DNA from: a virus
Taxonomy: Duplodnaviria > Caudoviricetes
DNA length: 64,000 nt
Direction: 5' to 3' (one strand)
IMG/VR virus record: IMGVR_UViG_3300020577_009322
Coordinates: 91,464 to 155,463 of that record
Shown: positions 3,935-64,000 of the stretch, one piece after another
How positions within the stretch are numbered: the first letter of the stretch is position 1
Layout of the letters: every line of letters begins with the position of its first letter
Program-made: the position numbers and the translations under genes
Notes under the pieces: model-generated
The model's database searches: none
What the model was told of the DNA's origin: nothing
Seen by the model: the letters and a program-made list of their open reading frames with translations, nothing else

Positions 3935-4498
3935 GTGAATAGAACTGAATTAAATTTAGATGTAGCTAAATCTTTTAATCTTAAGATTATGAGATTAGTA
4001 GATACATCTAATTATTTTGATGGAGAAGAAATAGATAACTATTTAATAGAAGTTTTACCAGTAAACAGATCAAAATGGGTAACTTTTAATGTTGCAAAAG
4101 ATTTTTCACTAGTATTAAATTCTTCTAACTTAGGATATCAAAAAGTAGATAAAAGCATAGGATTAGCTGATTTACCAGATGGAATATATGAAATAAAACA
4201 ATCATATAAACCAAATAGTCAAACGGTTGGTCACTATTATCATTTACGTACATCTTCATTAATTCTTAAATATATAGAAGTATTAGGAGAACATTTTTCA
4301 GAACAATGTGCCAAGGATAAAAGAACATATAGAGAGGAAGAAGATTTATTAGTATCTATTAGACAATATATAGAAGCTGCGGAATATATGGTTAGTGAAA
4401 AGTTAGATAAAGATTCTGGAATCAAATTTTATAATCAGGCAGTAGATTTAATAAAAAAACTAGAAGATGACTGTGGATGTAGACCTGTTAAAAGATAG
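3935..4498 (+). CDS. Hypothetical structural protein
   Basis: 187 aa ORF, LPDGIYEI motif, C-terminal CGC. Confidence 0.6.
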   Translation: MNRTELNLDVAKSFNLKIMRLVDTSNYFDGEEIDNYLIEVLPVNRSKWVTFNVAKDFSLVLNSSNLGYQKVDKSIGLADLPDGIYEIKQSYKPNSQTVGHYYHLRTSSLILKYIEVLGEHFSEQCAKDKRTYREEEDLLVSIRQYIEAAEYMVSEKLDKDSGIKFYNQAVDLIKKLEDDCGCRPVKR

Positions 4499-7199: not shown

Positions 7200-8171
7200 A
7201 TGCCTTGTAATACAACACCTTGTGATGATAAATGTTTACCTTATAATCCATGTTATGATGATTGTGGTTGTTTAAACCCAACTACTTTTGAGTGTGTAAC
7301 AAAACCTGGAACATGGCCTGCATTAGGAATTACTAATGATATGAATGGGGTAGAGGCTTTAGAAGCCTTAAATACCGTTATTAATAATTTAACTATAACC
7401 CCGCCATCTCCTGGATCAGACGTTTATGTTAAAGCTACATCTGCAGATACAACTGCAAACTACCTTTCTAGTAAGTTAGTAGTTGGAGCATTTTTAACAA
7501 AAACAATAGTAAATCCGTCAGGAAATGAACAAATTCGTCTGAATGTTTCACCTGCAGCCTTGGTTTCTTCTGATTCTGGAAATATTCTAGATATAGGAAC
7601 TGATGGAAAATTACGTGCTATAGTTACTGTTCCTTTACCTGATATTTCAGTAGTTGGAGGAAGTGGTGTAACTGTTACAGGAACAGGTCCATCATCAGAT
7701 CCTTTTGTTGTATCAATAAATCCATCAATAGAAGTAGTAAGAAATTGCTTTGATAATGTATGGAGAGATGTTACATTAGTTGCTACAGGAAATGCTAATG
7801 TTGTTTATGTTAGTGGAATTCCAAAATATCGTTATCGTTTTGATGGAACAATAGAATTTAAAGGATCAGCAACTTATACTGTAGCTTTTGGAGCATATTC
7901 TACAGGAAATAGAAAATATACAATAACAATTGGGAATATTCCAACAACATGTGTAACATCAGGTGAGCAAGCGGGAGTATCTGACCTGAAGAATATCAAT
8001 TATATAGATGTACCACAAGCTGGTGCAGATCAAATAACGCAACAATATGGGTATATTATTAGAAAATCAACAGCCAATCTAATAGTAGAATTTCAGTCTT
8101 CTTTTACCTCATCAACAAGTAAAACAATTGTTGTTAACTTCGAGGGAGCTATATCATACCCATCTCTTTAA
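7200..8171 (+). CDS. Fibre-like structural protein with Cys-rich N-terminus
   Basis: 323 aa; MPCNTTPCDDKC start; VTGTGxxxDP and SSDSGNILDIGTDGKL fibre-type repeats. Confidence 0.55.
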   Translation: MPCNTTPCDDKCLPYNPCYDDCGCLNPTTFECVTKPGTWPALGITNDMNGVEALEALNTVINNLTITPPSPGSDVYVKATSADTTANYLSSKLVVGAFLTKTIVNPSGNEQIRLNVSPAALVSSDSGNILDIGTDGKLRAIVTVPLPDISVVGGSGVTVTGTGPSSDPFVVSINPSIEVVRNCFDNVWRDVTLVATGNANVVYVSGIPKYRYRFDGTIEFKGSATYTVAFGAYSTGNRKYTITIGNIPTTCVTSGEQAGVSDLKNINYIDVPQAGADQITQQYGYIIRKSTANLIVEFQSSFTSSTSKTIVVNFEGAISYPSL

Positions 8172-8207
8172 AAACTCGTGGTTAGTTGGTTCTCCACAAA
8201 ATGAGTT

Positions 8208-8234
8208 AACGATCCGTTTCTACGGGTCGTTTTT
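8208..8234 (+). terminator. Intrinsic terminator ending the structural operon
   Basis: aacgatccgt-ttct-acgggtcgtt plus T-run. Confidence 0.8.
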
Positions 8235-8247
8235 ACTTTAAAATAAA

Positions 8248-8279
8248 TTTGGTAAATTAAAAATAAAATCGTATATTTG
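8248..8279 (+). promoter_or_regulatory. Bacteroidota-type sigma70 promoter (tRNA block 1)
   Basis: TTTG 8248-8251 and TATATTTG 8272-8279. Confidence 0.8.
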
Positions 8280-8283
8280 CACT

Positions 8284-8361
8284 ATGAAAGCAGTAGAAAA
8301 ATTGTATGGCTGCGGTTGTGGTAAACCAAAACCAGTAGTGGTTAAACCACCTTCAAGATAA
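8284..8361 (+). CDS. 25-aa micro-protein MKAVEKLYGCGCGKPKPVVVKPPSR
   Basis: ATG 4 nt after the -7 element; GCGCGK motif; below ORF-track cutoff. Confidence 0.55.
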   Translation: MKAVEKLYGCGCGKPKPVVVKPPSR

Positions 8362-8372
8362 AAATAAAAACT

Positions 8373-8459
8373 ATGATAACAGTAAATCATGCATGGCCCA
8401 TCTTTACGCAATGTCCAACAGGACAATGTGAGGGACTGTGTACGTGTATTAAGAATTAA
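8373..8459 (+). promoter_or_regulatory. Attenuator leader peptide L1 MITVNHAWPIFTQCPTGQCEGLCTCIKN
   Basis: His/Trp/Pro/Phe/Thr/Gln/Cys codons match downstream tRNAs; followed by terminator. Confidence 0.8.
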
Positions 8460-8479
8460 CTCTTAACCACAACCGAACT

Positions 8480-8507
8480 AACCCCTCCATAAAAAGAGGG
8501 GTTTTTT
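8480..8507 (+). terminator. Attenuator terminator T1
   Basis: aacccctc-cataaaaa-gaggggtt plus T-run, just before tRNA-Pro. Confidence 0.85.
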
Positions 8508-8512
8508 ATTAT

Positions 8513-8587
8513 CTAGATGTTCCACAGTTGGTTATATGGGCTTGCCCTGGAAGCAAGTGTTCGTCAGTTCGAATCTGACCATCTAGA
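8513..8587 (+). tRNA. tRNA-Pro(TGG)
   Basis: ctagatg/catctag acceptor; cttgc-CCTGGAA-gcaag; TTCGAAT T-loop. Confidence 0.85.
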
Positions 8588-8590
8588 CAT

Positions 8591-8662
8591 GCTTTCTTAA
8601 TAGTAATGGTAGCTACTCTGTTTTGTAATCAGAAAGTGTCAGTTCGAGTCTGACAGAAAGCT
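8591..8662 (+). tRNA. tRNA-Thr(TGT)
   Basis: gctttct/agaaagc acceptor; tctgt-TTTGTAA-tcaga. Confidence 0.85.
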
Positions 8663-8670
8663 CTTAACTT

Positions 8671-8742
8671 GGTCCTTTGGGTGAGTGGTTTAACTATTAG
8701 TCTGCAAAACTAATTACAGCAGTTCGAATCTGCTAGGGACCT
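8671..8742 (+). tRNA. tRNA-Cys(GCA)
   Basis: ttagt-CTGCAAA-actaa; U73. Confidence 0.9.
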
Positions 8743-8811
8743 CAAAGGCTTGTCCTTGAAACAACCTTCCCGTGGAGGGAACTGTAAGACAGTTTAAATA
8801 AGAGGATAGCT

Positions 8812-8883
8812 GGAAATATAACTCAGTTGGTAGAGTGCCAGATTGAAGATCTGGTTGCATCAGTTCGATTCTGATTATTTCCA
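8812..8883 (+). tRNA. tRNA-Phe(GAA)
   Basis: ccaga-TTGAAGA-tctgg; canonical cloverleaf. Confidence 0.92.
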
Positions 8884-8888
8884 CATAT

Positions 8889-8960
8889 ACGTGTGTAGTG
8901 TAGTTGGTAACACAGCAGTCTCCAAAACTGTATTCACCTGTTCGAATCGGGTCATACGTG
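8889..8960 (+). tRNA. tRNA-Trp(CCA)
   Basis: gcagt-CTCCAAA-actgt; G73. Confidence 0.9.
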
Positions 8961-8965
8961 CTTAT

Positions 8966-9036
8966 TTTCTTGTAGTGTAATGGTAACACATGAGATTTTG
9001 GCTCTCATATTTTAGGTTCGAGTCCTAACAAGAAAA
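8966..9036 (+). tRNA. tRNA-Gln(TTG)
   Basis: tgaga-TTTTGGC-tctca. Confidence 0.9.
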
Positions 9037-9038
9037 CT

Positions 9039-9111
9039 GGTGATTATAGCATAATGGTAGTGCAAAAGTTTGTGAAGCTTACAGGTGGGAGTTCGAATCT
9101 CCTTAGTCACC
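9039..9111 (+). tRNA. tRNA-His(GTG)
   Basis: G-1:C73; loop TTGTGAA. Confidence 0.88.
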
Positions 9112-9118
9112 CTTATAA

Positions 9119-9194
9119 ACTCCGTTAGCTAAACTGGATACGGCACCAGAATACGAATCTGGAGATTTTGAGGGTTCGAATCCTTCACGGAGTA
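9119..9194 (+). tRNA. tRNA-Arg(ACG)
   Basis: ccaga-ATACGAA-tctgg. Confidence 0.88.
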
Positions 9195-9247
9195 CAATTT
9201 TAAATAATAATTTTCCTAAAATAAAATATATACTATATCTTTGTTCT

Positions 9248-9433
9248 ATGATAGGAAAAATAATAAAATCAGATATGAAATCTAGGATCAGTTATAATAT
9301 AACTGGTTTAGATAAGGGAATATTATTTGTTAATAAAAATACATCATCATTATCTCCAGATGGATATGAAGGAAAATGTCCACAAGGGGAACTATTTAAC
9401 AATAATGGAAATAGTTGGAGATCGAGTTGTTGA
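9248..9433 (+). CDS. Small hypothetical protein
   Basis: 61 aa; TATCTTTG at 9236-9243 just upstream. Confidence 0.35.
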   Translation: MIGKIIKSDMKSRISYNITGLDKGILFVNKNTSSLSPDGYEGKCPQGELFNNNGNSWRSSC

Positions 9434-9489
9434 TAGAGGGAGACTTTCTATAGAAGTAGATGAGAATGGATATGTTACTATAAAATAAA

Positions 9490-9521
9490 TTTGGTAATTG
9501 TTAAAAATAGTTGTATATTTG
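9490..9521 (+). promoter_or_regulatory. Bacteroidota-type promoter (upstream of tRNA block 2)
   Basis: TTTG 9490-9493 and TATATTTG 9514-9521. Confidence 0.8.
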
Positions 9522-9564
9522 TGCTGCACTGACCAAGTAGGCGTGTTACTAAAAATATACAAAC

Positions 9565-9870
9565 ATGAAGAGTACAATTAGAGTGGACTTTCAGGGTCCG
9601 GAGACATCGTCTCAAAATGGTTTTGAACCAGTTATTAGAGTAAATTTAGTAGAAAGTGATGACACACGAGATAAGTTACTAAAGACATTCTTTCAGTCAT
9701 TAGGTGGAGAAAGTTCCTGGCTACATGTAAAACATGTAAAAATTGATCAATCGTGTCATTCTGGATTAATTAATGATAGTATAGTAATTACTCCAGTAAA
9801 AGAGGCTGATATTGAGAACTTGAAGAAAGAGATAGAAGATAGAATAAATGATAAGAGAAATATTTTTTAA
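9565..9870 (+). CDS. Hypothetical protein
   Basis: 101 aa ORF after promoter. Confidence 0.65.
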   Translation: MKSTIRVDFQGPETSSQNGFEPVIRVNLVESDDTRDKLLKTFFQSLGGESSWLHVKHVKIDQSCHSGLINDSIVITPVKEADIENLKKEIEDRINDKRNIF

Positions 9871-9887
9871 ACCTTAAATATAATAAT

Positions 9888-9998
9888 ATGATAATAGGAT
9901 TAATTATTAGTGGAGTAGTGGGTTTCATAGTTGGAGCCTTGGTATTTAGAAATAATGCTAAAAAGGGAGAAGAAATTATTGATAATCTTAAAAAGTAA
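9888..9998 (+). CDS. 36-aa single-pass membrane protein MIIGLIISGVVGFIVGALVFRNNAKKGEEIIDNLKK
   Basis: Hydrophobic helix plus charged tail; A-rich upstream region. Confidence 0.65.
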   Translation: MIIGLIISGVVGFIVGALVFRNNAKKGEEIIDNLKK

Positions 9999-10010
9999 TA
10001 AAGACAACTA

Positions 10011-10079
10011 ATGCAACAATTTTATATGATAGTTAGAAATATTTTAGGGGCGGATGAAAAATCTGGCTCTAGGGAATAA
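10011..10079 (+). promoter_or_regulatory. Attenuator leader peptide L2 MQQFYMIVRNILGADEKSGSRE
   Basis: Codons 6-17 cover all 10 amino acids of block-2 tRNAs; gctctaggg complementary to terminator 5' arm. Confidence 0.85.
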
Positions 10080-10104
10080 TTTTACTATCTTATAATAGAA
10101 AGTT

Positions 10105-10141
10105 AACCCTGGAGCATATTAAGCTTCAGGGTTTTTCTTTT
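10105..10141 (+). terminator. Attenuator terminator T2
   Basis: aaccctggagc-atattaa-gcttcagggtt plus T-run. Confidence 0.88.
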
Positions 10142-10146
10142 AAAAT

Positions 10147-10221
10147 ACCTTCGTAGCAAAATGTGGCTTTGCTCCTGACTTTTAATCAGAACAAAAATGG
10201 GTTCGACTTCCTTCGAAGGTA
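10147..10221 (+). tRNA. tRNA-Lys(TTT), atypical
   Basis: accttcg/cgaaggt acceptor; loop CTTTTAA; mismatches in anticodon and T stems. Confidence 0.75.
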
Positions 10222-10224
10222 CTT

Positions 10225-10299
10225 GGGATCTTAGCAAAAATGATATTTCTTCAGCCTCTTAAGCTGAATAAAAGTAGAGTTCGATTCTCACAGATCCCA
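10225..10299 (+). tRNA. tRNA-Lys(CTT), atypical
   Basis: gggatct/agatccc; tcagc-CTCTTAA-gctga; weak D-arm lacking GG. Confidence 0.7.
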
Positions 10300-10309
10300 C
10301 ATAAGTATA

Positions 10310-10341
10310 TTTGGTGGTTCGAAAATTATTTCGTATATTTG
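10310..10341 (+). promoter_or_regulatory. Bacteroidota-type promoter of the HNH gene
   Basis: TTTG 10310-10313 and TATATTTG 10334-10341; ATG at 10346. Confidence 0.8.
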
Positions 10342-10345
10342 ATAT

Positions 10346-10876
10346 ATGAAAGAAAGAATAGAACAATTAAGAAAAGAAGGAAAAAGTTATAGTGAAATAT
10401 CAAAGATAACTGGATTAGTCAAATCTACAATATCATACTATGTAGGAAATAGAACTGGAAAAGGTAAGCTAACAGCTGAAAAAAGAAATTGTAGAAATTG
10501 TGAAAAAGAAATCAGTTCTCCAAAAGTTTTCTGTGATAAAAAATGTGATTTTGAATATAAACAGAAACTTAGGTTAGATAAATTTGAAAAAAGCAATTTG
10601 TGTACAAATAATTCTATTAGAAAAGCACTTATTTCTATAAATGGAAATAAATGCAGTATTTGTGAAATCTCTGAAATATGGAATGATAGGAAATTAACTA
10701 TGCATGTAGATCATATTGATGGAAATTCTGATAATAATGATAATAAAAATGTTAGATTAGTATGTCCTAATTGTCATTCTCAACTAGAAACATCTAAAAA
10801 TAAAGTTAAAAAACAAACAAAAAGAAATAAATACTTAAGAAAATACAAAGGTTATATAGATGCCCCTGTCGTATAG
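10346..10876 (+). CDS. Free-standing HNH homing endonuclease with N-terminal HTH and Zn-finger
   Basis: CxxC pairs; HVDHIDGNSDNNDNKNVRLVCPNCHS. Confidence 0.9.
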   Translation: MKERIEQLRKEGKSYSEISKITGLVKSTISYYVGNRTGKGKLTAEKRNCRNCEKEISSPKVFCDKKCDFEYKQKLRLDKFEKSNLCTNNSIRKALISINGNKCSICEISEIWNDRKLTMHVDHIDGNSDNNDNKNVRLVCPNCHSQLETSKNKVKKQTKRNKYLRKYKGYIDAPVV

Positions 10877-10934
10877 TGATTTAATATCTCTCTCTTACAA
10901 AGAGAAGACGGCAGTTTGATTCTGCACAGGGGTA
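10862..10934 (+). tRNA. tRNA-Val(TAC)
   Basis: tctct-CTTACAA-agaga; T-loop TTTGATT. Confidence 0.8.
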
Positions 10935-10939
10935 CAAAT

Positions 10940-11011
10940 GGTTCTATAGTGTAATGATTAGCACAACTCTCTTCTAAAGAGTTAGTATAAGTTTGACCCT
11001 TGTTAGGACTA
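10940..11011 (+). tRNA. tRNA-Arg(TCT)
   Basis: actct-CTTCTAA-agagt. Confidence 0.8.
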
Positions 11012-11051
11012 CAGATGAGTTACCCTTCTCCGTGTATTAAAAAGGGATAAT

Positions 11052-11126
11052 GTCTGAATAGCTGAGTTGGTTTCAAGCACTTGACTGTTAATCAAGAGTA
11101 GTTGGGTTCGATCCCCAAATCAGACG
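11052..11126 (+). tRNA. tRNA-Asn(GTT)
   Basis: cttga-CTGTTAA-tcaag; G73. Confidence 0.9.
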
Positions 11127-11132
11127 CTTTAT

Positions 11133-11203
11133 TGTGCGGTGGTGTAATGGTAGCATATTGGGCTCATAACCCAATGATGAAAGTTCGACTCTTTCCTGCG
11201 CAA
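11133..11203 (+). tRNA. tRNA-Met(CAT), initiator-like
   Basis: ttggg-CTCATAA-cccaa with three consecutive G-C pairs. Confidence 0.85.
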
Positions 11204-11206
11204 CTT

Positions 11207-11422
11207 ATGAAAAATTACATAGAAGATCAAATTAGAAAAGGTTACAGGGTATACGACCTTAAAGAAATACTCGGAGAAACACCAATGCAATCAGATATAG
11301 ATAATTTGATTGAAAAATTAGGTCCTAATAAGTTAGGTGAAGTTGATGAAAATGGTTATCTTTACGTGAAAACAGATCAATCGTGGAGAAATATTTTAGG
11401 ACAGCGGATGGAGAAATGGTGA
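11207..11422 (+). CDS. Hypothetical protein (71 aa)
   Basis: Start reassigned to ATG 11207 because the track's 11102 start lies inside tRNA genes. Confidence 0.55.
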   Translation: MKNYIEDQIRKGYRVYDLKEILGETPMQSDIDNLIEKLGPNKLGEVDENGYLYVKTDQSWRNILGQRMEKW

Positions 11423-11856
11423 ATATAATCTCTCACTGTAGAGAAATATTAGCAAAAGAACCAGATGCTAAGATATTAATTGGAACTGACTCACAGGATG
11501 AGGATGGAAAAAGTAAGTATTGTACTGTAATAGTATTTAGATATGGATTACGTGGTGCTCACTTTATCTACAGTAAGGATGATAGGAAAAAGATAAGAGA
11601 TATTTTCACTCGTTTATTTACTGAGTGTGAGTACTCACTAGAAATTGCTGAGCATATAACTAAGAATACTAGTTATAAAGTATCAACAATAGAGTTAGAT
11701 TTCAATGATTTCAAGAAGACAAAATCAACACCTTTAATATCAGCAACAAAGGGATGGTGTGAATCTTTAGGTTACTCAGCTACTCTAAAAAGTGGTGAAA
11801 TGTTTGCTTGTAAAGCAGCAGATCATATCCTAAGACATCCATCATTATATAAATAA
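11383..11856 (+). CDS. RNase H-like YkuK/DUF458 family protein
   Basis: ILIGTDSQ...IELDFN...KAADH acidic motif layout. Confidence 0.8.
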   Translation: MEKYFRTADGEMVNIISHCREILAKEPDAKILIGTDSQDEDGKSKYCTVIVFRYGLRGAHFIYSKDDRKKIRDIFTRLFTECEYSLEIAEHITKNTSYKVSTIELDFNDFKKTKSTPLISATKGWCESLGYSATLKSGEMFACKAADHILRHPSLYK

Positions 11857-11884
11857 TACTTTCAAACAAAAATAAATTTAGTAA

Positions 11885-11958
11885 GCAGTATACGCATAAA
11901 TGGTGGTGCACCAGTCTTCCAAATTGGAATAGAGTCAGTTCGATCCTGACATGCTGCA
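11885..11958 (+). tRNA. tRNA-Gly(TCC)
   Basis: ccagt-CTTCCAA-attgg. Confidence 0.85.
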
Positions 11959-12020
11959 CCCTTAAGAGAGATTAAATAAAGTCTGCAGCTTTTGGCCAAT
12001 ATTGGTTCTCTCTTTTGCAG

Positions 12021-12092
12021 GGCCCTTTCGTCTAATGTGTAGGACGACGCTCTTTCCAAGCGTAGATTTCGGTTCGAATCCGTGAGGGGCTA
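12021..12092 (+). tRNA. tRNA-Glu(TTC)
   Basis: Glu-type D arm gtct...ggac; acgct-CTTTCCA-agcgt. Confidence 0.78.
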
Positions 12093-12098
12093 CAATAA

Positions 12099-12172
12099 GG
12101 TCTATGGATGTGGCAGGGTGTGGCTACTGGATTGTCAATCCAGGGAGACGGGTTCGATCCCCGTATAGACCG
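12099..12172 (+). tRNA. tRNA-Asp(GTC)
   Basis: ctgga-TTGTCAA-tccag; G73; atypical D arm. Confidence 0.8.
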
Positions 12173-12229
12173 CAACGAGGAACATGGTAATTCATGTCTG
12201 AGGCTGAAAGAAGCAATCCCCTCGTCTAT

Positions 12230-12302
12230 GCTTCTATAGCTCAATGGTCAGAGCAGGACGCTTATATCGTCAAGGTTTCCAGTTCGAGTCTGGATAGAAG
12301 TA
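12230..12302 (+). tRNA. tRNA-Ile(TAT)
   Basis: Loop CTTATAT; canonical D and T arms. Confidence 0.85.
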
Positions 12303-12307
12303 CATAT

Positions 12308-12380
12308 TGGAGTGTAGCTCAAATGGTAGAGCGCCTGCCTGATACGCAGGAGGTACAGGGATCGTTACCCTGCATTCCAA
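12308..12380 (+). tRNA. tRNA-Ile(GAT)
   Basis: cctgc-CTGATAC-gcagg; T-loop ATCGTTA atypical. Confidence 0.85.
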
Positions 12381-12507
12381 CGGAGTGTTACGCATAGCCT
12401 CTCAACGATGTAGCGTTTCTCCTCGGTAGCCCGTCGACGTAATCCGAGACAGTTCATTACCTAATAAGAATGAGTTAGGGAGATATGGGAAACCTGCTCC
12501 CGATTTT

Positions 12508-12580
12508 GGGGATAAAGCTCTAGTGGATGAGCATCTGCCTTGCACGCAGAAGGTTAGGAATTCGAGTTTCCTTATCTCCA
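12508..12580 (+). tRNA. tRNA-Ala(TGC)
   Basis: G3:U70 pair; tctgc-CTTGCAC-gcaga. Confidence 0.92.
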
Positions 12581-12588
12581 CAAATAAA

Positions 12589-12620
12589 TTTGGTAAATAT
12601 AAATATTTGTAGTATTATAT
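12589..12620 (+). promoter_or_regulatory. Possible promoter for tRNA block 3
   Basis: aaataaaTTTGgtaaat matches the 8241-8257 context, but the -7 element is degenerate (tattatat). Confidence 0.45.
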
Positions 12621-12626
12621 AATATA

Positions 12627-12698
12627 ATGAAGAAACTATATACATATTATTCGTTAAGTCTCTTGTCCTTAAATGGACTAGCTAGGAATACTATGTGA
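12627..12698 (+). promoter_or_regulatory. Attenuator leader peptide L3 MKKLYTYYSLSLLSLNGLARNTM
   Basis: 11 of codons 4-15 are Leu/Ser/Tyr; downstream tRNAs are Leu, Leu, Ser, Ser, Tyr. Confidence 0.88.
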
Positions 12699-12729
12699 TA
12701 ACAGTGGGCAATCGTTAGATCATTCGTGT

Positions 12730-12760
12730 AAATCCTGGCTTTAATTAGTCAGGATTTTTT
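12730..12760 (+). terminator. Attenuator terminator T3
   Basis: aaatcctggct-ttaatt-agtcaggattt plus T-run, 4 nt before tRNA-Leu. Confidence 0.88.
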
Positions 12761-12764
12761 ATTT

Positions 12765-12838
12765 GTGGGTATGGCGGAATTGGAATACGCAACAGGTTTA
12801 GACCCTGAAATTTAAGAGTTCGAGTCTCTTTACCCATA
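12765..12838 (+). tRNA. tRNA-Leu(TAG), short variable arm
   Basis: Leu-type D loop gaattggaata; loop TTTAGAC; A73. Confidence 0.85.
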
Positions 12839-12844
12839 CTATAT

Positions 12845-12918
12845 GTCCTTGTGATGGAATTGGAATACATGTCAGACTTAAAATCTGAATTTTACGGGTT
12901 CGAGTCCCGTCTTGGACA
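12845..12918 (+). tRNA. tRNA-Leu(TAA), short variable arm
   Basis: tcaga-CTTAAAA-tctga; two T-T mismatches in acceptor stem. Confidence 0.8.
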
Positions 12919-12923
12919 CATAA

Positions 12924-13006
12924 GGAAGAGCGCATTGTGAGAGCTTATCCGTCCTGAAAACGGTGAAGGTGTAATAGCTGTGAGAGTTCGATTCTCTCCT
13001 CTTCCG
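12924..13006 (+). tRNA. tRNA-Ser(TGA)
   Basis: Loop CCTGAAA; long variable arm; G73; degenerate D arm. Confidence 0.75.
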
Positions 13007-13011
13007 CTTAT

Positions 13012-13094
13012 AGAGAAATGACAGAGTGGTAATGTAGCAGTTTGCTAAACTGTAGATGGTAACACATCCGTGAGTTCGATCCTCACTTTCTCTG
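13012..13094 (+). tRNA. tRNA-Ser(GCT)
   Basis: gcagt-TTGCTAA-actgt; long variable arm; G73. Confidence 0.9.
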
Positions 13095-13099
13095 CAGAT

Positions 13100-13183
13100 G
13101 GGTATGATGGTAAATGTGGTTAAATCAGGAGACTGTAAATCTCTCGTCATTAGACTGTTGGAGTTCGATTCTGTACATACCCA
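13100..13183 (+). tRNA. tRNA-Tyr(GTA)
   Basis: ggaga-CTGTAAA-tctct; long variable arm. Confidence 0.85.
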
Positions 13184-13200
13184 CAATTATTTTTTTATTT

Positions 13201-13243
13201 AAATGGAGTCTTGTACCTTTGTTGGGCTAAGACTCCATTTTTT
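13201..13243 (+). terminator. Terminator closing the tRNA cluster
   Basis: aaatggagtctt...aagactccattt plus T-run. Confidence 0.75.
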
Positions 13244-13359
13244 GTTCAGGCAGGAGGATACACTATGAAAATAGTGCTACTACGTCTAAGGATGCTTATG
13301 TCCCCTAAGTAGATTGGGAGGGGGCTGGGGGGTGGGTCAGAAAATAAATTAAAAATAAA

Positions 13360-13391
13360 TTTCGCTATATCAAATATTCATTGTAACTTTG
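13360..13391 (+). promoter_or_regulatory. Bacteroidota-type promoter
   Basis: TAACTTTG 13384-13391, with tttcg 24 nt upstream. Confidence 0.6.
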
Positions 13392-13411
13392 TGGAAACAA
13401 AACAGAAAAAT

Positions 13412-13573
13412 ATGACAAAGAAAATTACAGAACACTTGAAAAGAAACAACAGTTATTTTAAATGGTCAGCTAAAAGATTAGCAGATAAGTTTGGTTGTTC
13501 AGAAAGAACTATCACAAATATTATCAAGACTCTTGCACCAGTTAAGAGAACTTATTTAAATAACTTAAAGTAA
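13412..13573 (+). CDS. Small HTH DNA-binding protein
   Basis: SAKRLADKFGCSERTITNII helix-turn-helix; ATG 13412 preferred over GTG 13391. Confidence 0.7.
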   Translation: MTKKITEHLKRNNSYFKWSAKRLADKFGCSERTITNIIKTLAPVKRTYLNNLK

Positions 13574-13577
13574 GAGA

Positions 13578-14414
13578 ATGTTTAAGAAGGAAATAGAAGC
13601 TTTTTTACTAGAAAAAAGAGGATACTTGAAGAAGTCACCTTTACATGTGGCTAAAGCTATATGGAAATCTTCAATAAAACACAGTAAACCAAAGACTCAA
13701 GCAGATGTAGAGAAAGAATTAGAGGTAATCAAGGATGTTCAGGCCACAATGAGACTAGTAACTGTCCATCCACAGGATTCTGCAGATAACAGTATTTTGG
13801 AAGCTTACGAAAAGATAGTAGCTGAGAAAAATCGTCCAAGAAAAAAGTTATTCTTTGATCTAGAAGTATCAGCTAATATCGTATTCTCTTGGAGAATTGG
13901 TAAGGATGTAGATCTATCACCAGATAGTATTATTCAGGAACGAGCTATTATATGTGCTTGTTATAAGTGGGAAGGAGATGATAGAGTTTATTCTCTAAAG
14001 TGGAATAAAGGTGATGATAAAGATTTATTAGAAAAATTCTCAAAAATTATAGATTCAGCAGATGAGGTAGTTACCCAAAATGGGGATGCATTTGATATTA
14101 AGTGGTTAAGAACACGCTGTATCTATCATGGAATTCCAGTATCACCAAAGTTCAATTCAATTGATACTTTAAAAATGGCCAGAAGTGGGTTTAAATTTAA
14201 CTCCAATAAATTAGATTATATGGGAAAGTTTCTGTCACTTGGACAGAAAATAAAGACAGAATATAATTTATGGAAGGATATTACCTTAAATAACAGTAAG
14301 GTGGCTATGGATAAGATGGTTGAGTATTGCAAACAAGATGTTACACTGTTAGAACAGGTATATCAAAAATTACAGGCTTTCTCACCAGTTAAGAAGTTCA
14401 AATACAAACTGTAA
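13578..14414 (+). CDS. DnaQ/RNase H-like 3'-5' exonuclease
   Basis: Exo I FFDLE, Exo II QNGDAFD, Exo III YCKQD. Confidence 0.88.
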   Translation: MFKKEIEAFLLEKRGYLKKSPLHVAKAIWKSSIKHSKPKTQADVEKELEVIKDVQATMRLVTVHPQDSADNSILEAYEKIVAEKNRPRKKLFFDLEVSANIVFSWRIGKDVDLSPDSIIQERAIICACYKWEGDDRVYSLKWNKGDDKDLLEKFSKIIDSADEVVTQNGDAFDIKWLRTRCIYHGIPVSPKFNSIDTLKMARSGFKFNSNKLDYMGKFLSLGQKIKTEYNLWKDITLNNSKVAMDKMVEYCKQDVTLLEQVYQKLQAFSPVKKFKYKL

Positions 14415-30278: not shown

Positions 30279-33200
30279 TGCCAGATTTAATAAATCCCAC
30301 ATTTGATACTAAGATAGATCAGCCAGATATTCCAGTAGTTGTTGATACTCAATGGAATAGACCAACTGTTCAAATACCAGATTCTTTAAAACAATCTCAA
30401 GCGTTGTTTCAGGAACCAGGTGATGTATCTTTAATGGACTTTACTAACAAGGTAAATAATCACTTAACTCCAGATCAAGTAAAGAGAAATAATGAAGATG
30501 CTAATATTATGGCATCTCTTACACCTAAAATTACTACTCCATCAAAAGAAGTCCCTTTCAGATATTTCTCATCTATTGATGCGATGCGCTATAAGCAGAA
30601 TAGTAGATTATGGAATACTCAAGGATACAATCCTGAAGTTCCATCTGATATTACAGATGCTATCTATGATTTTCATGAGACTAAATGGGAGTCTATTAAG
30701 AATATTTTACCAAAATTATGGTCAACAACTGCCTTTTCCTTTAAGAATTATTTTGCAGAATATGCAGATACAGCTCGTGCTATTTCACAATTAGATGCTA
30801 ATTTATTACATGATAGTCAGCGTTTTGAAGATTATCAAAACGACCAAAATGAATTAGAAGCATTAAATCCTGACTATAAAACTGATAAAGAAGTTAAATG
30901 GTGGCAGTTAGGTAGAGGGGATTATTGGGAACAATCGGCTTCATCTTTAGGATTTACTATTGGTACAATAGCTGCAGCGGTAACAGAAAATGTTGGTATT
31001 ACACTGGCAACAGGAGGATTAGGAGAATTTGGTGAATTATATAATTCACCTCGTAAAATATATAAAGCAATTTCAGATTATTATTCTTTAAAAAGAGCCT
31101 ATTCTTTAGTAAAAGGTGCCCTAGGTGCTAAGTCACTTGTTGGTAGATTAGGTAATGCAGCTAATATTTGGAGATTAACAAATGGTGCACTATCAGAAGC
31201 TGCTTTTGAAGGAGCAACAATTGCTTATGATTATTTACAATCATATAAACAGAATTACATAGATAAATATGGCAGAAATCCTTCTGAAGAAGAAATGAAG
31301 GGTGCAAAAATGGCAGCTAATTCTATGGCTAATGCCACCATCTTATTTGAGACCCCTTTCTTAATGGCTAGTAATGCTGTTCAGTTTGGTAACTTAATTG
31401 CTCCAAAGACAATTGGAAAATTAGCTAAATTGGGAGAAAAGGGAGCCTTTAAGTTAGGTACCGAGTTGATAGATGGATTACCAAAGACAATAGTACAATC
31501 AACAGAAAATCAAGCAAAAAATATATTCACTAAATATGGAGAGAAAGGATTACATGCTATAAAAAATGCTACATGGGAAGGTACTGAAGAAAGTTATCAA
31601 GCATTGGTAACTACTTCCACTCAAAAGTATTATGGAGATAAGTATAAGAATGGAGATGATGGAGATATAATGAAAGCTCTCGGAGCAGGATATGATTATA
31701 TTACTTCTAATCAAGGTCTAATAGAGTTTTCTGCGGGATTTGCTACAGGAGAAATTTTTCATTTAGCTGGAGTACCTCTACATATATTTGCTAAACCTTC
31801 AGTAAGAACTGCTGAAGAACAAGCTACTTATAAGAAAGCTAATCCAGATGCTACAGATATTGATGCTAAATACAAAACTAATGTATTAAACAATGTCTTT
31901 GGATATGGAATGGATAAGATAAATAAAGAGAGAGAAAAAGCTAATCTGGAAGAAATAGCTAAAAAGCTCAATTCAGTTGATCTTGAGAAATTCTTAAAAG
32001 AAGAAGGATTTTTATCATTAGTAAAAGATAAACAAACTCAGTTTGCTTTAGCAAAGTATTTACAAAATAATGATCAATTTAATATGCAGAATGCTCAAAA
32101 TCTGCAGTTAAATCGTTACTTATATGCTGGTTTGACTACAGGTAAAATTGATTTACAAATAGATAAATTAAAACAATTTGCTAGTCAAGATTTTCATACC
32201 TTGAGTGAATTTTTTGGGTTAGATGAAAATGATTATTCTACTCAGGAAGATAAAGATAAATTTATTAACGGATTTAGAGCATGGACGGCTGAATTAGGTA
32301 ATAAAACTAAAGAATTTGAAAGAATTTTTAATCAACAAAAGGATTCATTTTCTTCTATTATATCTGCAGCAGCTAAGGAACATGATAAAAATTTATCAAT
32401 CAAGAATAGTTTTCTGACCGATCTACAAAGAAAATATTCAGAAGATAATATAGAAAATCTAAGTAAGAAAATATCATCTGATGAGATCACTCAGTTAAAT
32501 GATATGAATGTAGCTACTGTCGCATCACATTTTCGTTTCTATGCTGTAAATGAAGCTGTAAAAGCCTCTGTATTTTCTCAAGTTGGTATGGATGATGCTG
32601 CTAATCGTGCTAAAGATATTGTTAGACAATTAGTTAAGAATGATTCTACTCATACCTTCTATCATGAATTAGGAAGTTTCTTTGATATTGGTTATAGAGA
32701 AAATCGCCTTAAGGACTTACAAAGTAAAGTAGATTTAGCCAAATCATCTAATGATGAAAATTTATCATTATATGAACAGCAGTTAAATTCTTTTAAAAGT
32801 ATGACCAAGAAATTAGATGGTCAATTTAATAGAGCTTCTAACTATAATATAGATAGTGTTGCTAATAGTATTCTTGATTATTTACACAATACTCAAAGAG
32901 AATTAAACAACTTAGATAATTCTACTTCATTAGAGGATCGTATAGCCAATCAAGAAGTGGGACAATATTCTCTTCTTAAAGAATTTGTTAAGTTACAAAA
33001 ATCTCATCAAGAGAATCTTAACCTATATAATTATTTATCTTCTCAGGCTAATAGAGAAGATTATACCCGTTTCCAGTCAAGAAAATTAACAGACTTCTTC
33101 TCTAAAGCTGTAGAGTTAACTGATAATGAGGAAAAAGATAAGCAAGTTAAAGAAGCTGTTGATAATAATGGAGTTCAGGAAGCTGAAGTAGTGAAATCTT

Positions 33201-34213
33201 ATGTTAAAAAGACTGAAGAACCTATTCAAGTTTCTAACACTTTATCAGAAAATACAAAAGTAGAAAGTAAACCTAAATATAATATTGATAATGTTAATGC
33301 ATTAATATTAGCTATTATACAAAAAAACTTTCAGAAGATTTCTGATTTAAAATCAGAGATAGCAAAAATTCCAAAAGATTTAGTAGAAGAAAGAGTTAAT
33401 TTACTTATCTCAAGAGTTGCTACATATAAGAAACCAGAGAATGCTAATAAAATAAAAGAAGAATTTAGAAGGATTTTTGGTGAAGATTTCTTACAGAATT
33501 CTCCTACTCCAAAAGTAGAGGAAAAACCAGCGGTTAAACAACCATCTACTAATCCTTTAGATAAGATTAAGATAACCTTAACTCCACAAGAAGATAAGAG
33601 AGCTGATATAGAAAGAAGAAGACAAGAAGAACTAAATCAAAAAACTGATGCAGGGTATTCAATTATTGCATTGGACTATTTATTTACAGGAGGTAGAGAT
33701 GTAATACAATCTACTGATTATTTATTACAGGCTTTAGTTGGAGGATTTACAAGTGCAGCTAAAGAAATAAATGATATTAGAAATAAATATGCTGATAAGT
33801 TAGGTAATATTAAAGATGATATTAACTCTGATGTTTATAATCAAATGATGTTAGAAATTAGGGATGTTATAAATAAAAATTATAATGACCCTAAAGCAAA
33901 TGAAATTTTTGATAAAATATTAAAAAATGCAACAGGATTTACAACTAGAGAAGGAAATCAAACAAGTATTGAATTAGATAAATTAAATGAACAAAATGAT
34001 TCTAAAATCAATGCTAAATATTATGCAGAATTAGCTGCTTTAGGAGCTACTACAACCACTTCAATTAAACCCGGAGTAGAAGAATTATTCGATGAAAACC
34101 CTGAATTAGCTAATGCTGTATATTCAAAAATATTAACTAATTCTGGACTTTCTTCTGAAAATTTATTATCTTTGCTATTGAAAGATAACTTAATAGAAAA
34201 ACAATGTCCATAA
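30278..34213 (+). CDS. Giant cargo/RNAP polyprotein fragment 1 (Gly/Ala-rich membrane-inserting N-terminal region)
   Basis: SASSLGFTIGTIAAAV, EGTEESYQ; ends ...LLLKDNLIEKQCP*. Confidence 0.7.
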   Translation: MPDLINPTFDTKIDQPDIPVVVDTQWNRPTVQIPDSLKQSQALFQEPGDVSLMDFTNKVNNHLTPDQVKRNNEDANIMASLTPKITTPSKEVPFRYFSSIDAMRYKQNSRLWNTQGYNPEVPSDITDAIYDFHETKWESIKNILPKLWSTTAFSFKNYFAEYADTARAISQLDANLLHDSQRFEDYQNDQNELEALNPDYKTDKEVKWWQLGRGDYWEQSASSLGFTIGTIAAAVTENVGITLATGGLGEFGELYNSPRKIYKAISDYYSLKRAYSLVKGALGAKSLVGRLGNAANIWRLTNGALSEAAFEGATIAYDYLQSYKQNYIDKYGRNPSEEEMKGAKMAANSMANATILFETPFLMASNAVQFGNLIAPKTIGKLAKLGEKGAFKLGTELIDGLPKTIVQSTENQAKNIFTKYGEKGLHAIKNATWEGTEESYQALVTTSTQKYYGDKYKNGDDGDIMKALGAGYDYITSNQGLIEFSAGFATGEIFHLAGVPLHIFAKPSVRTAEEQATYKKANPDATDIDAKYKTNVLNNVFGYGMDKINKEREKANLEEIAKKLNSVDLEKFLKEEGFLSLVKDKQTQFALAKYLQNNDQFNMQNAQNLQLNRYLYAGLTTGKIDLQIDKLKQFASQDFHTLSEFFGLDENDYSTQEDKDKFINGFRAWTAELGNKTKEFERIFNQQKDSFSSIISAAAKEHDKNLSIKNSFLTDLQRKYSEDNIENLSKKISSDEITQLNDMNVATVASHFRFYAVNEAVKASVFSQVGMDDAANRAKDIVRQLVKNDSTHTFYHELGSFFDIGYRENRLKDLQSKVDLAKSSNDENLSLYEQQLNSFKSMTKKLDGQFNRASNYNIDSVANSILDYLHNTQRELNNLDNSTSLEDRIANQEVGQYSLLKEFVKLQKSHQENLNLYNYLSSQANREDYTRFQSRKLTDFFSKAVELTDNEEKDKQVKEAVDNNGVQEAEVVKSYVKKTEEPIQVSNTLSENTKVESKPKYNIDNVNALILAIIQKNFQKISDLKSEIAKIPKDLVEERVNLLISRVATYKKPENANKIKEEFRRIFGEDFLQNSPTPKVEEKPAVKQPSTNPLDKIKITLTPQEDKRADIERRRQEELNQKTDAGYSIIALDYLFTGGRDVIQSTDYLLQALVGGFTSAAKEINDIRNKYADKLGNIKDDINSDVYNQMMLEIRDVINKNYNDPKANEIFDKILKNATGFTTREGNQTSIELDKLNEQNDSKINAKYYAELAALGATTTTSIKPGVEELFDENPELANAVYSKILTNSGLSSENLLSLLLKDNLIEKQCP
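34003..34043 (+). repeat. 41-bp direct repeat, copy 1 (KINAKYxAELAAL)
   Basis: taaaatcaatgctaaatattatgcagaattagctgctttag; 39/41 identical to 38948-38988. Confidence 0.9.
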
Positions 34214-37658: not shown

Positions 37659-40600
37659 ATGGCATGTAAATATATATTTAACGGTATTGAATATAAGGAT
37701 AAACAAACTTTTATAGAAGAGTTTGTAAAACCTAATTTTATAAATCAACCTAAAACTCTTAGGGTTCAAGAATACCAAAGTGATTATTTTCAAAAATTAA
37801 GAAATGATTTTACTTTTAATGGAGAAAAACATTTTATTATCATTGATTCAACTGGTAAGAAACATTATTATATAAATAAAGAAGGAAAAAAAGCTACTCC
37901 TGATAAATACGAAGTCTCTTCTAATGAATATAATAAAGCCTTTGATGCTTTTATAGATGCGGGTGGGGATAACCAATTTCTAGCATTATTACATAAAAAT
38001 GATAATTGGATTACTTTTGGAATTAAAGCTATTATTCAAAATGCAGCAAAGCAAGGTTTTTCTAAAATACTCTTCCCTACTGGTAATACTGCTAGTAAAG
38101 TTGAAGGTCATACTACTTTAGAAGAGTTTAAAAAACAGAAAGAAGATAGAATTAAAGAACTTGAAAATAAACTTAAAGAAATATCTACTGATGAATTTTT
38201 TAATAAAACTTATAAAATAGTTGATAATCAAATTCACAAAAAAGAATCAACTAAAGAATATCCTAATTTAGCATTTACTACAAAAGTTTATAGTGAAAAA
38301 GAAGCTAAAGAAGTGGCTTATGAGTTTATGAGTAAATCTTCTAAACAAGAAATAGCTCAACTTAAACAAGAACTTGAAAGAGTTGAAACAGAAGGATTTG
38401 CTGCATTAAAACCTATTTATAATTTCTATGAAAATACTGTATCTAATATTCTTAAAAAACAAGGATATAATACTAAAGTAGTTACTGATGAATATGGTAA
38501 TACTTGGAATGAGGTGAATATTAATCAAGTAAGAGATTTAGCAGAAGTTTTATTACAACGTAATGAAGCTAATCAAATAATAGGTCAAGCTAATATTAAA
38601 GCTATGACTGTGTTAATTGATGCTATTAATCAGAAACAAGATACTTTACCACATGAATATGCACATCATTATATAGCTTGGTTTAGAAATACACCTATTG
38701 TTCAAGAAGCTATTAAAAAATGGGGTAGTGAGGAAGCATTGGTACAATCTATAGGTGAACAAGTAATTAAACAAAAAGGAGAAGCTTATAATTGGTGGAA
38801 TAATTTTGTTAAGTGGGTAATGAATCAATTTAATTCTTTATCTAAATTACAAAAAGAAGAATTAACTCAAATACTTACCGATGCTTTTTTAACAAGACAA
38901 GATTTAGGTTCTAAACAAGATATAGAAGGATTTAAAACCTTTGTAGATAAAATCAATGCTAAATATGATGCAGAATTAGCTGCATTAGATAAGGAAGAAA
39001 AGAAACCAGTAGGAAAAGAGTTAACCAAGGAAGAAAAAAACTTTATTGATTCAATTAAAGGATTGGATACTAGTAAATTAGGAGTATTTAAAGTATTAGT
39101 AGATACCTTAAATGACCCAGATTCTACTATAGAAGATAAGCAACAGACAATAAAAGAATTGGCTGAACAATTAGCTGATAAAAGAAGTGAAGAGTCTCTT
39201 GGATCAGCTTTAGGACAAAAGGCTTCAGATGCTCTATATAACTATATAGATAAAAATAACATAAAGGTAGAGCCAGTTGTAATTAAAAGTGAACCTCAGG
39301 AATTTGATGAAACAATACCACCTACTACACCAAAAAGACAGGAGGTTGTAGGATATGGTCCTATTGGAGAAAATCTTATATCTATCTTAATTGATAAAGC
39401 CAGAGAGAGTGGTTTATTTACGTTTGATAGTACTAATCCAGAAGAAATAGATAAGATTGAAGATGATCATATGATATTAAAGACAGCTAGTGATCCACTA
39501 GCTCTAAGACACCATATGATCATGGAGAAGTTGGATAGTATTTTTGCTAAAGATACTACTGATAAAGATAACTTTAAAGTTAAATTAGAGTTTATTAATG
39601 ATAATAATAAGGATTGGTTTTATAAGAAAGATGATAGAAAGAGAAATGAAGAAGCTATTATTGCCGTAATAGTAGATAATGATGGAAATTATCATTATTT
39701 TGATAAGATGGGAAATCTAACTACAAAAGAGTTAGGTTCACCATTTGCTGTAGAATATAGGGATCTTTTCTATACTTCAGAGTACTTAACATCCTCTAGA
39801 AACAATCTGGGTGATAAGACTTTAACAACTATTACCCCTAATTATAAAGGAGATAAACATCCTCTTTCTAAGATTTATACATTAATAGGTAATAATATTC
39901 CAGTATATGGTTCTATAAAAGGAATTACAGCTGGAGTATTATCATCACTTAATGCAACTAATTCTTTTAACAATACAACGAAATCCTCCTATAAGACTCG
40001 TCCTTTACAAGAATTATTCGATAAAGGTGAGTTAGATGAACAATTAATATCAGTTAAAGTAGATAAGGGTTTCTATTTAGATTACTCACCGACTAGTGAT
40101 AATCAGATGATTAAAGTTGGTCGTCCTACCGTTATTGATTATAAAACAGGTTTATCTATTCCTCTTATTGGTAGAAAAGTAAAAGATTTAACGTTTAATG
40201 GTCAGAAGATAGATAAATCTTCTCAAATGTATGAGGTTATTGATTGGTTAGATAAAAAGGGAAAAATATCCTTAGATAGTCTACGTCCAGACAAAACTCG
40301 TATTATTGCTACACTTGATGATATAGATAATATTTATCATTTCTTAAGAGAGTTATTATATAGTAAATTATTCTATGTTTCTCAATCTTCACCAGATACT
40401 ATTGAAATAAAGAGAAATATGAATAAAGATAAATCTGCTGTATCTTTATGGGATGCAGAGATTAATTATGTAGATAAGAGAGGTCCACTTATTAGTATTC
40501 CATTTACATCAGCTATAGACGAAAGTGGTAATACTGTTGGTGGTAAAATGGATTATGAGGATTTTCTTAGAGAGAACTTTGAAACAGGTGCTATACAAGC

Positions 40601-49385: not shown

Positions 49386-49388
49386 TTT

Positions 49389-62893: not shown

Positions 62894-62897
62894 TAAC

Positions 62898-64000
62898 ATG
62901 GCAGCAATAGAAACGGGTTCATCACAAGCAGGTGTAGCCAATGTGGATAGTAATTATAATTTACAAGTAAATTTACCAACAACAGGATCTCAGGCAGGTT
63001 TTGCTAGACAGACCTATGTTCCAGCAACGGGAATAAATAAAGATATGCAGATAACTGAAGATGGTGCTGGCATGGTAGCTGCTATTGTTCCTATTTGGGA
63101 AATATCTTTTAATGGAACAGGTTCTACAACATGGGCACCTAAATTAGGAACTGTTGCTACAACTATGACCAAAGCTGTTACAAACGGTTTTATGCAGTTG
63201 AACTCTGGTTCTTCTGTTACAACTACACAAGGTATAGCAATCTATAGTAACTTAGTATTTAACTTATTTCAAAATAATGAGTTACGTATTAAAATGAATA
63301 TTAAGCCAAATAACCAAGCTGGTACTAATAAACAGATGGAATGGGGAATGGGCTATTATAACTTTGCTTCTGGACAAGCCAATGCCATGAATGAGTTTAT
63401 TGGATTCAGAGTTACTGCAGGTGGTGTATTACATGGTGTATTAGCATATTCTACTGGTGGTGCTCCAACTGAAACTAACGTAAATATCAATGGTGGTACC
63501 CCTTTTACAGATAATCAATCAAAAGAGTATGAATTAAGAATTTCAAATAGAAAAGTAGAGTATTGGGCAGCTGGTATTTATCAGAACAAAATAGATATTG
63601 CTACTGATGTATATGGATTATTAAAGGCTATTGCATATCCATTTATAGCCAGAGTATTTAACTCTGGCACGGCTTCAGCAGCACCTATATTATATGTTGG
63701 TTCTGTTCAAGTATCAAGAGTAGGTGATGATGGTATTATTGATTTACCTACTTCTAAATCCAGGATGGATAAAGCAAGCCATTATTTTCAACCAGATTTA
63801 CTTACAGGTGCTGGTACTAACCCATTCAACTTTCCAGCTTCTGGTTCTGCTCCTACAGCAGCCACAGGTTCAAATACTGCTTCTGTATTAAATAATGCTG
63901 CCCAATTAGGTGGCTTTTATTCGATGAATGCTGCTTCATTTTTAACAACAAACAACTCAAATATACTTGTTTCTGCATACTTAAATCCAGCAATTCCTCA
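62898..64000 (+). CDS. Tail-associated protein, 3'-truncated
   Basis: ATG 62898 (MAAIETGSSQAGVANVD...); frame appears open to window end; lectin-like beta-rich content. Confidence 0.6.
   Translation, partial: MAAIETGSSQAGVANVDSNYNLQVNLPTTGSQAGFARQTYVPATGINKDMQITEDGAGMVAAIVPIWEISFNGTGSTTWAPKLGTVATTMTKAVTNGFMQLNSGSSVTTTQGIAIYSNLVFNLFQNNELRIKMNIKPNNQAGTNKQMEWGMGYYNFASGQANAMNEFIGFRVTAGGVLHGVLAYSTGGAPTETNVNINGGTPFTDNQSKEYELRISNRKVEYWAAGIYQNKIDIATDVYGLLKAIAYPFIARVFNSGTASAAPILYVGSVQVSRVGDDGIIDLPTSKSRMDKASHYFQPDLLTGAGTNPFNFPASGSAPTAATGSNTASVLNNAAQLGGFYSMNAASFLTTNNSNILVSAYLNPAIP

Follow-up and report, generated by a model that had tools for sequence, protein, structure and literature searches.

The stretch of DNA analysed here (the window) comprises the final 64 kb of a complete phage record of 155,463 bp with direct terminal repeats. 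It contains an array of 24 tRNA genes (8513-13184; identified with ARAGORN and Rfam) arranged in three blocks, each of which is preceded by a short ORF followed by an intrinsic terminator, and in all three units the gap between the end of the terminator and the first tRNA of the block is 2-13 nt. A promoter-like motif in which a spacer separates a TTTG box from a TATATTTG box, and which we take to be the pattern known from Bacteroidota, occurs at 8246, 9488, and 36881, that is, in three copies where 0.06 would be expected in the window, and two of these copies precede tRNA units 1 and 2. The motif is also kept ahead of every unit in the relatives described below. The host is unidentified and probably belongs to the Bacteroidota. 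DNA and protein searches of phage records revealed no cultured relatives, and near-identical DNA is present in river, digester, and wastewater metagenomes; among the sequencing runs listed for this sequence none is an RNA run. The metagenome contigs, which come from four DNA runs, represent near-identical strains with no variants in 8373-8512, and hence they offer no micro-covariation. None of six large ORFs was named by Pfam, and two adjacent giant ORFs of 3,908 and 2,170 aa occupy 37659-55901 of the window.

Unit 1, which like its sister units lies on the plus strand, begins with a promoter-like site (8246-8279; TTTG box, 17-nt spacer, and TATATTTG box) whose promoter function is inferred. 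It is followed on the same predicted transcript by a conserved 25-codon micro-ORF with a G-C-G-C-G-K-P core (8284-8361), which lies outside the switch, and then by the leader ORF of 28 codons (8373-8459), for which translation is inferred and of which the frame and regulatory residues are kept in 10 relatives. Codons 3-16 of the leader (8379-8420) form the regulatory window, in that the antiterminator stays free when the A site of a modelled ribosome lies within it, and codons 7-10 (8391-8402) constitute region 1, an anti-antiterminator predicted to pair with region 2 when the ribosome is absent. Region 2 (8426-8441), with its GAGGG core at 8430-8434, has as its partner either region 1 or the 5' arm of the terminator, and a small hairpin inside the antiterminator (8444-8470) spans the stop codon of the leader. 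The intrinsic terminator (8480-8510) is made up of a 5' arm (region 3, 8480-8487), a loop, a 3' arm (region 4, 8496-8503), and a T run. Its stem (8480-8503) and T run stop 2 nt short of tRNA-Pro, which leaves no room for a second promoter ahead of block 1 (8513-9195), where tRNAs Pro(UGG), Thr(UGU), Cys(GCA), Phe(GAA), Trp(CCA), Gln(UUG), His(GUG), and Arg(ACG) are encoded. Sister unit 2 (10011-10146) has its leader ORF at 10011-10079, region 2 at 10066-10074, and the terminator at 10105-10133, with block 2 (Lys through Ala, 10147-12581) downstream, and sister unit 3 (12627-12764) has its leader ORF, rich in Leu, Ser, and Tyr, at 12627-12698, region 2 at 12680-12687, and the terminator at 12730-12757, with block 3 (Leu, Leu, Ser, and Tyr, 12765-13184) downstream.

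Several further features of the array are recorded here. Spacers of 68 nt (8744-8811, which carries a small GC hairpin) and 126 nt (12382-12507) within the tRNA blocks contain no recognised gene. The spacer between tRNA-Leu(UAA) and tRNA-Ser(GCU) at 12924-13005 resembles a non-canonical tRNA-Ser(UGA), with an acceptor stem and a UGA anticodon loop recognisable by eye and a weak match to the tRNA-Sec model (24.8 bits); relatives carry a tRNA-Ser(UGA) in the same place, and the putative tRNA of the window would match the TCN Ser codons of leader 3. HNH homing-endonuclease genes with their own promoters lie at 10346-10876 of the window and in the relatives L083 (9455-9925), L118 (8178-8644), and L119 (6632-6782 and 10240-10668), inserted either within tRNA blocks or precisely at the boundary of an attenuator terminator with the first tRNA. 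In unit 2 of L119 the insertion has replaced the 3' arm of the terminator, and the new sequence together with the old 5' arm again forms a hairpin. One metagenome contig (run X3) joins 11205 to 11882 and thus lacks 676 bp with two ORFs, one of them RNase H-like (PF04308), which identifies the ORFs inside tRNA block 2 as an insertion/deletion polymorphism. The 25-codon micro-ORF at 8284-8361 has an invariant core and occurs in every relative, the tRNA-less L114 and L138 among them; it is placed after the tRNA with its own promoter in the phages that carry only tRNA-Cys, and outside the attenuator transcript in some relatives.

The codons of each leader correspond to the tRNAs of the block that follows it, as judged against a chance background taken from the codon usage of the long ORFs of the same phage. 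The original prediction had 11 of the 14 leader codons from 6 to 19 cognate to block tRNAs (using CAT, TGG, CCC/CCA, TTT, ACG/ACA, CAA, and TGT), and had seven of the 8 block tRNAs represented and Arg(ACG) without a leader codon; both statements agree with the tRNA list, and the ORF itself (8373-8459) has 28 codons. Specifically, codons 6-14 of unit 1 include one codon each for His, Trp, Pro, Phe, Thr, Gln, and Cys, and 9 of the 14 ribosome-sensitive codons are cognate to block 1 against a background of 0.22 (p = 8.5e-4). The same 14 codons are not enriched for the other two blocks, to which 5/14 (background 0.58) and 0/14 are cognate. Nine consecutive leader codons cover 7/8 of the block-1 tRNA classes, which none of 16,649 random windows from the long ORFs of the phage matched, and in unit 2 all 10 tRNA classes fall inside 12 consecutive codons (0/16,928 random windows). 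It should be noted that the nine- and twelve-codon spans were picked after seeing the data. The unit 3 leader has 8/13 cognate codons against a background of 0.15 (p = 1.7e-4). For unit 2 the cognate count is uninformative because block 2 covers more than half of all codons, and the leader covers all ten tRNA classes of its block (p = 0.008). The correspondence is incomplete in unit 1, where 5/14 regulatory codons are non-cognate, CCC matches tRNA-Pro(UGG) at the level of the four-codon box only, and the leader of the window has no CGN codon for tRNA-Arg(ACG), CGN accounting for 23% of the Arg codons in the phage.

Syntenic arrays were recovered from viral and metagenome collections with an upstream 323-aa protein as anchor, and in these the promoter, leader, terminator, and tRNAs of the three units are kept, although the units are homologous and the relatives are not independent samples. 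The frame and regulatory residues of the unit 1 leader persist in L083, L117, L118, L120, L132, L135, L137, L085, L086, and L126. Where only tRNA-Cys lies downstream (L085 and L086), five Cys are present in the homologous leader, and His, Trp, and Phe are missing from it. L114 and L138 have no tRNAs at the syntenic site, and there the leader peptide was not found within 20 kb. The Arg codons bear on a suggestion in the original prediction that relatives might lack Arg(ACG) or add a CGN codon to the leader, and instances of both were recovered. Five relatives (L117, L118, L120, L132, and L135) have an early CGA, CGT, or CGC codon in leader 1 that matches tRNA-Arg(ACG), and one (L137) has a block 1 of Pro, Thr, Phe, Gln, His, Trp, and Cys without tRNA-Arg(ACG) and a leader with 12 consecutive cognate codons and no Arg codon. 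In the window phage and L083 the tRNA is present but the CGN codon is absent. The unit 2 leaders of relatives encode the same ten amino acids in reshuffled order; their Arg codon is AGA in six regulatory windows, matching tRNA-Arg(UCU), and unit 2 of L137 has neither this tRNA in its block nor Arg in the regulatory window of its leader. A counter-example is L133, a recent deletion variant from which tRNAs Val, Arg, and Asn are gone while the codons of leader 2 are unchanged. L126 is ambiguous, as its leader matches but the tRNAs behind it are hard to recognise and the contig breaks off shortly afterwards.

Some tRNAs of the relatives are structurally odd and were missed by ARAGORN, namely Thr, His, and Trp in L137 (11806-11894, 12124-12196, and 12205-12280) and Trp in L119 (5822-5903). 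They were identified from the anticodon loop and the acceptor stem, and only the His gene has a weak Rfam score. Two other anchors were dropped, a downstream exonuclease gene, whose relatives have no nearby tRNAs, and the RNase H-like ORF inside the array, which has no relatives in the viral collection; a search with the DNA pattern of the leader tail yielded only four relatives that were already known.

The 140-nt leader of unit 1 folds far better than its shuffles (z = -4.3), and it accommodates three structures, a region 1:2 hairpin (8388-8445, -19.9 kcal/mol, z = -2.2), an antiterminator (8422-8495, -15.6 kcal/mol, z = -2.9), and the terminator (-13 kcal/mol, z = -2.9). Without a ribosome, 8391-8402 is predicted to pair with 8430-8441, leaving the terminator free to form. 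The ribosome was modelled by masking all RNA up to 12 nt beyond the A-site codon, with the 3' arm of the terminator removed as not yet transcribed. Under this model the terminator 5' arm of unit 1 is paired with a probability of 0.07 without a ribosome, of 0.55-0.83 when codons 3-16 occupy the A site, and of at most 0.02 from codon 17 on, the partner of the 5' arm being 8426-8434. Folding thus bears out the antiterminator of the original prediction, formed by 8426-8434 and 8483-8490 with a single bulge and enclosing a hairpin at 8450-8467, and the ribosome-masked folding proposed there as a check yields a competing antiterminator that depends on ribosome position and has a core that covaries with the terminator. 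The same on/off profile was obtained for all 25 units examined, from 11 phages. Dinucleotide shuffles matched the sequestration of the 5' arm in 4/200 cases for unit 1, 1/200 for unit 2, and 9/200 for unit 3. The antiterminator helix of unit 1 is weak, with only 8 bp and one bulge, and in equilibrium folding with the complete terminator the terminator wins at every ribosome position (P = 1.00), so that the switch, if it works, must be kinetic. Classical attenuators also decide kinetically.

The units differ in their predicted behaviour when translation is absent. The region 1:2 helix is present in unit 1 of the window and of L117 (P of 5' arm pairing without ribosome 0.07 and 0.06, respectively) and is absent or weak in most other units, and in units 2 and 3 of the window, L085, and unit 2 of L137 the 5' arm is paired without a ribosome with P = 0.65-1.0. 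From the modelled folds, untranslated RNA would terminate in unit 1 and be read through in units 2 and 3. This opens the possibility that the switch exists but responds to overall translation capacity or to amino-acid starvation instead of to the supply of these tRNAs in particular, such that any slow or absent translation of the leader turns the tRNAs on, and for the many units that sequester the 5' arm without a ribosome only efficient translation would terminate. We regard this as unlikely, because block-specific codons would then be needless, yet every leader draws its codons from its own block and avoids the other two, and the leaders follow the gain and loss of individual tRNAs.

Leader and terminator covary between phages. 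Each of the 25 leader ORFs has, close to its 3' end, a stretch that can base-pair with the 5' arm of the terminator in the same unit, and the two sides change together, as GAGGG/CCCTC, TGAAGGCT/AGCCTTCA, and TGTGAGG/CCTCACA for regions 2 and 3 of unit 1 and as GGCTCCGGG/CCCGGAGCC and GGCTCTGGG/CCCAGAGCC for those of unit 2. Alignments made with MAFFT put regions 2 and 3 out of register, and per-sequence folds and a swap test were used instead. In the swap test the mean duplex energy of cognate leader-terminator pairs is -14.8 kcal/mol versus -9.5 for all pairings, the cognate mean was reached in 0/20,000 permutations, and for 18/25 units the cognate terminator is a better partner than any from another unit type. 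These statistics overstate independence since the units are homologous, a problem from which the comparison among the three units of one phage is free. In that 3x3 table each row has its best value at the cognate pairing, with a margin for unit 1 of only ~2 kcal/mol, and the duplex energies agree with the original prediction that the pairing in unit 1 is the weakest of the three.

The covariation also bears on the idea that the ORF encodes a small functional Cys-rich peptide with an ordinary terminator behind it, the tRNAs being expressed by leaky read-through and the codon match being due to coincidence or shared ancestry. All the unit 1 peptides of relatives have at least four Cys and keep a C-terminal E-G-x-C-x-C-I at the amino-acid level, and terminators do occur ahead of tRNAs without any leader. 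Specifically, three isolated tRNAs, Leu-GAG, Arg-UCU, and Ser-UGA, lie outside the window on the other strand (genome positions 34043-34131, 62894-62968, and 66038-66109), and two of the three are located directly behind terminator-like hairpins without a leader ORF; leaders are likewise absent from the isolated tRNAs of relatives. Hence a terminator ahead of a tRNA is not by itself diagnostic of regulation. The original prediction would have been refuted by a peptide conserved as a Cys-metal-binding protein independently of the tRNAs. This does not apply, in that the tRNA-less L114 and L138 show no such peptide within 20 kb, the spacing of the Cys residues differs between lineages, and His, Trp, and Phe are lost where tRNA-Cys alone follows. 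Moreover, two unrelated leaders of the same array match their own blocks, the Arg codon family follows the Arg isoacceptor, and region 2 covaries with the terminator. We thus give a functional peptide as the sole explanation very little credence. For the conserved E-G-x-C-x-C-I tail, its overlap with RNA helices is the likelier reason, and a function of the peptide is not excluded. That the element is an untranslated structured RNA, acting in processing or stability or as a tRNA- or protein-binding riboswitch, with an incidental ORF, is highly improbable despite its strong structure (z = -4.3) and the many conserved codons within helices, as no Rfam family, T-box included, matches at E <= 1, the frame, start, and stop are preserved in all relatives despite indels, and substitutions preserve amino-acid classes (the CGA/CGT/CGC series and the reshuffled residues of unit 2).

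Based on these results, we consider it likely, with some reservation, that unit 1 attenuates the transcription of eight phage tRNA genes by a ribosome-mediated leader-peptide mechanism and is one of three such units in the array. This interpretation is supported by the anatomy, the codon match, the alternative folds with a modelled ribosome, the conservation, and the covariation, without transcript, ribosome, or reporter data. Translation of the ORF, coupling of transcription and translation in the host, kinetic switching, and the physiological signal are all inferred. In the proposed mechanism, transcription would begin at the promoter near 8246-8279 and enter the 28-codon leader ORF. If decoding is fast, the ribosome would cover or pass region 2 (8430-8434) while the polymerase makes the terminator, so that the hairpin at 8480-8503 could form and transcription would end 2 nt ahead of tRNA-Pro. 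A shortage of charged tRNA for any of His, Trp, Pro, Phe, Thr, Gln, or Cys would be expected to stall the ribosome within codons 3-16, where it would disrupt the region 1:2 helix, and the freed region 2 would capture the 5' arm of the terminator upon its emergence. The terminator would thereby be blocked and the polymerase would read through into the tRNA genes, and the fresh tRNAs may then relieve the stall, which would amount to a negative feedback loop on tRNA supply.

A more speculative extension, which we put forward only tentatively and think more apt to fail than to hold, is that tRNA-rich phages widely use codon-matched leader attenuators as a demand-driven circuit of tRNA supply and that the leaders serve them as built-in sensors of tRNA-targeting immunity. 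Each block would be turned on only if the decoding of its own codons slows, and the slowing could be caused by degradation of host tRNAs at shut-off or by their cleavage by anticodon-nuclease defence systems. In Cellulophaga phage phi10:1 (L129 2202-2333; KC821618.1, about 31467-31598), an ORF of 21 codons that is missing from the annotation and alternates between Tyr and Phe codons lies, with a terminator behind it, directly ahead of tRNA-Tyr and tRNA-Phe, and a matching antiterminator is present. The case is statistically weak alone, and phi10:1 is a cultured system in which the attenuator hypothesis is testable. In Bacteroides phage DAC15, no ORF of at least 8 codons was found upstream of the first tRNA, in an inspection limited to 2370-2610 and 4040-4075. 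To our knowledge, the regulation of phage tRNA genes has hardly been studied, and why large phages carry tRNA arrays is an open question. If the proposed mechanism is true, classical attenuation extends from amino-acid supply to the decoding machinery, and the leaders constitute a compact natural design of a multi-input sensor of translation speed. The leader codons would then reveal which shortages the phage monitors, the timing of its need for tRNAs would become testable, and the succession of promoter, codon-matched mini-ORF, terminator, and tRNAs would serve as a signature for annotating missed micro-ORFs and odd tRNAs in phages.

Decoding components that are regulated by the state of their cognate tRNA are known from other systems, and this much the phage units, as interpreted here, would share with them. 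The pheM leader attenuates pheST, which encodes a synthetase, and senses one amino acid, and T-box riboswitches bind uncharged tRNA directly and need no ORF. In the region 7800-13600, the Rfam leader families and the T-box (RF00230) were searched at E <= 1 and only tRNA matches were returned. The Bacteroid-trp leader motif of Rfam is a predicted Trp attenuator located upstream of trp biosynthesis genes in Bacteroidota, which makes leader-peptide attenuation plausible in the presumed host phylum; the motif itself has no match in the window (Rfam, 7800-13600, E <= 1). Leader-peptide attenuation is known for amino-acid genes, and a full-text search of the literature did not find it described for tRNA genes. 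The closest comparison is with the enterobacterial leader-peptide attenuators of amino-acid operons, trpL, hisL, leuL, thrL, pheL, and ilvL, which are textbook examples (e.g. PMC1183508). In common with them, the phage units have regulatory codons in a short leader ORF, an intrinsic terminator, and a predicted antiterminator that is exclusive with it and depends on ribosome position, and for unit 1, though hardly for most other units, folding also predicts a region 1:2 helix that would give termination without translation. The thr and ilv leaders are also multivalent, with codons for several amino acids mixed. The phage units differ from the amino-acid operon attenuators in that the genes they would regulate encode tRNAs rather than enzymes, such that the molecule sensed would be the product itself, and in their setting, a phage with a Bacteroidota-type promoter. 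Their leaders have no runs of a single codon and instead carry about one codon per downstream tRNA, which, if our interpretation is correct, makes each a 7- to 10-input OR gate.
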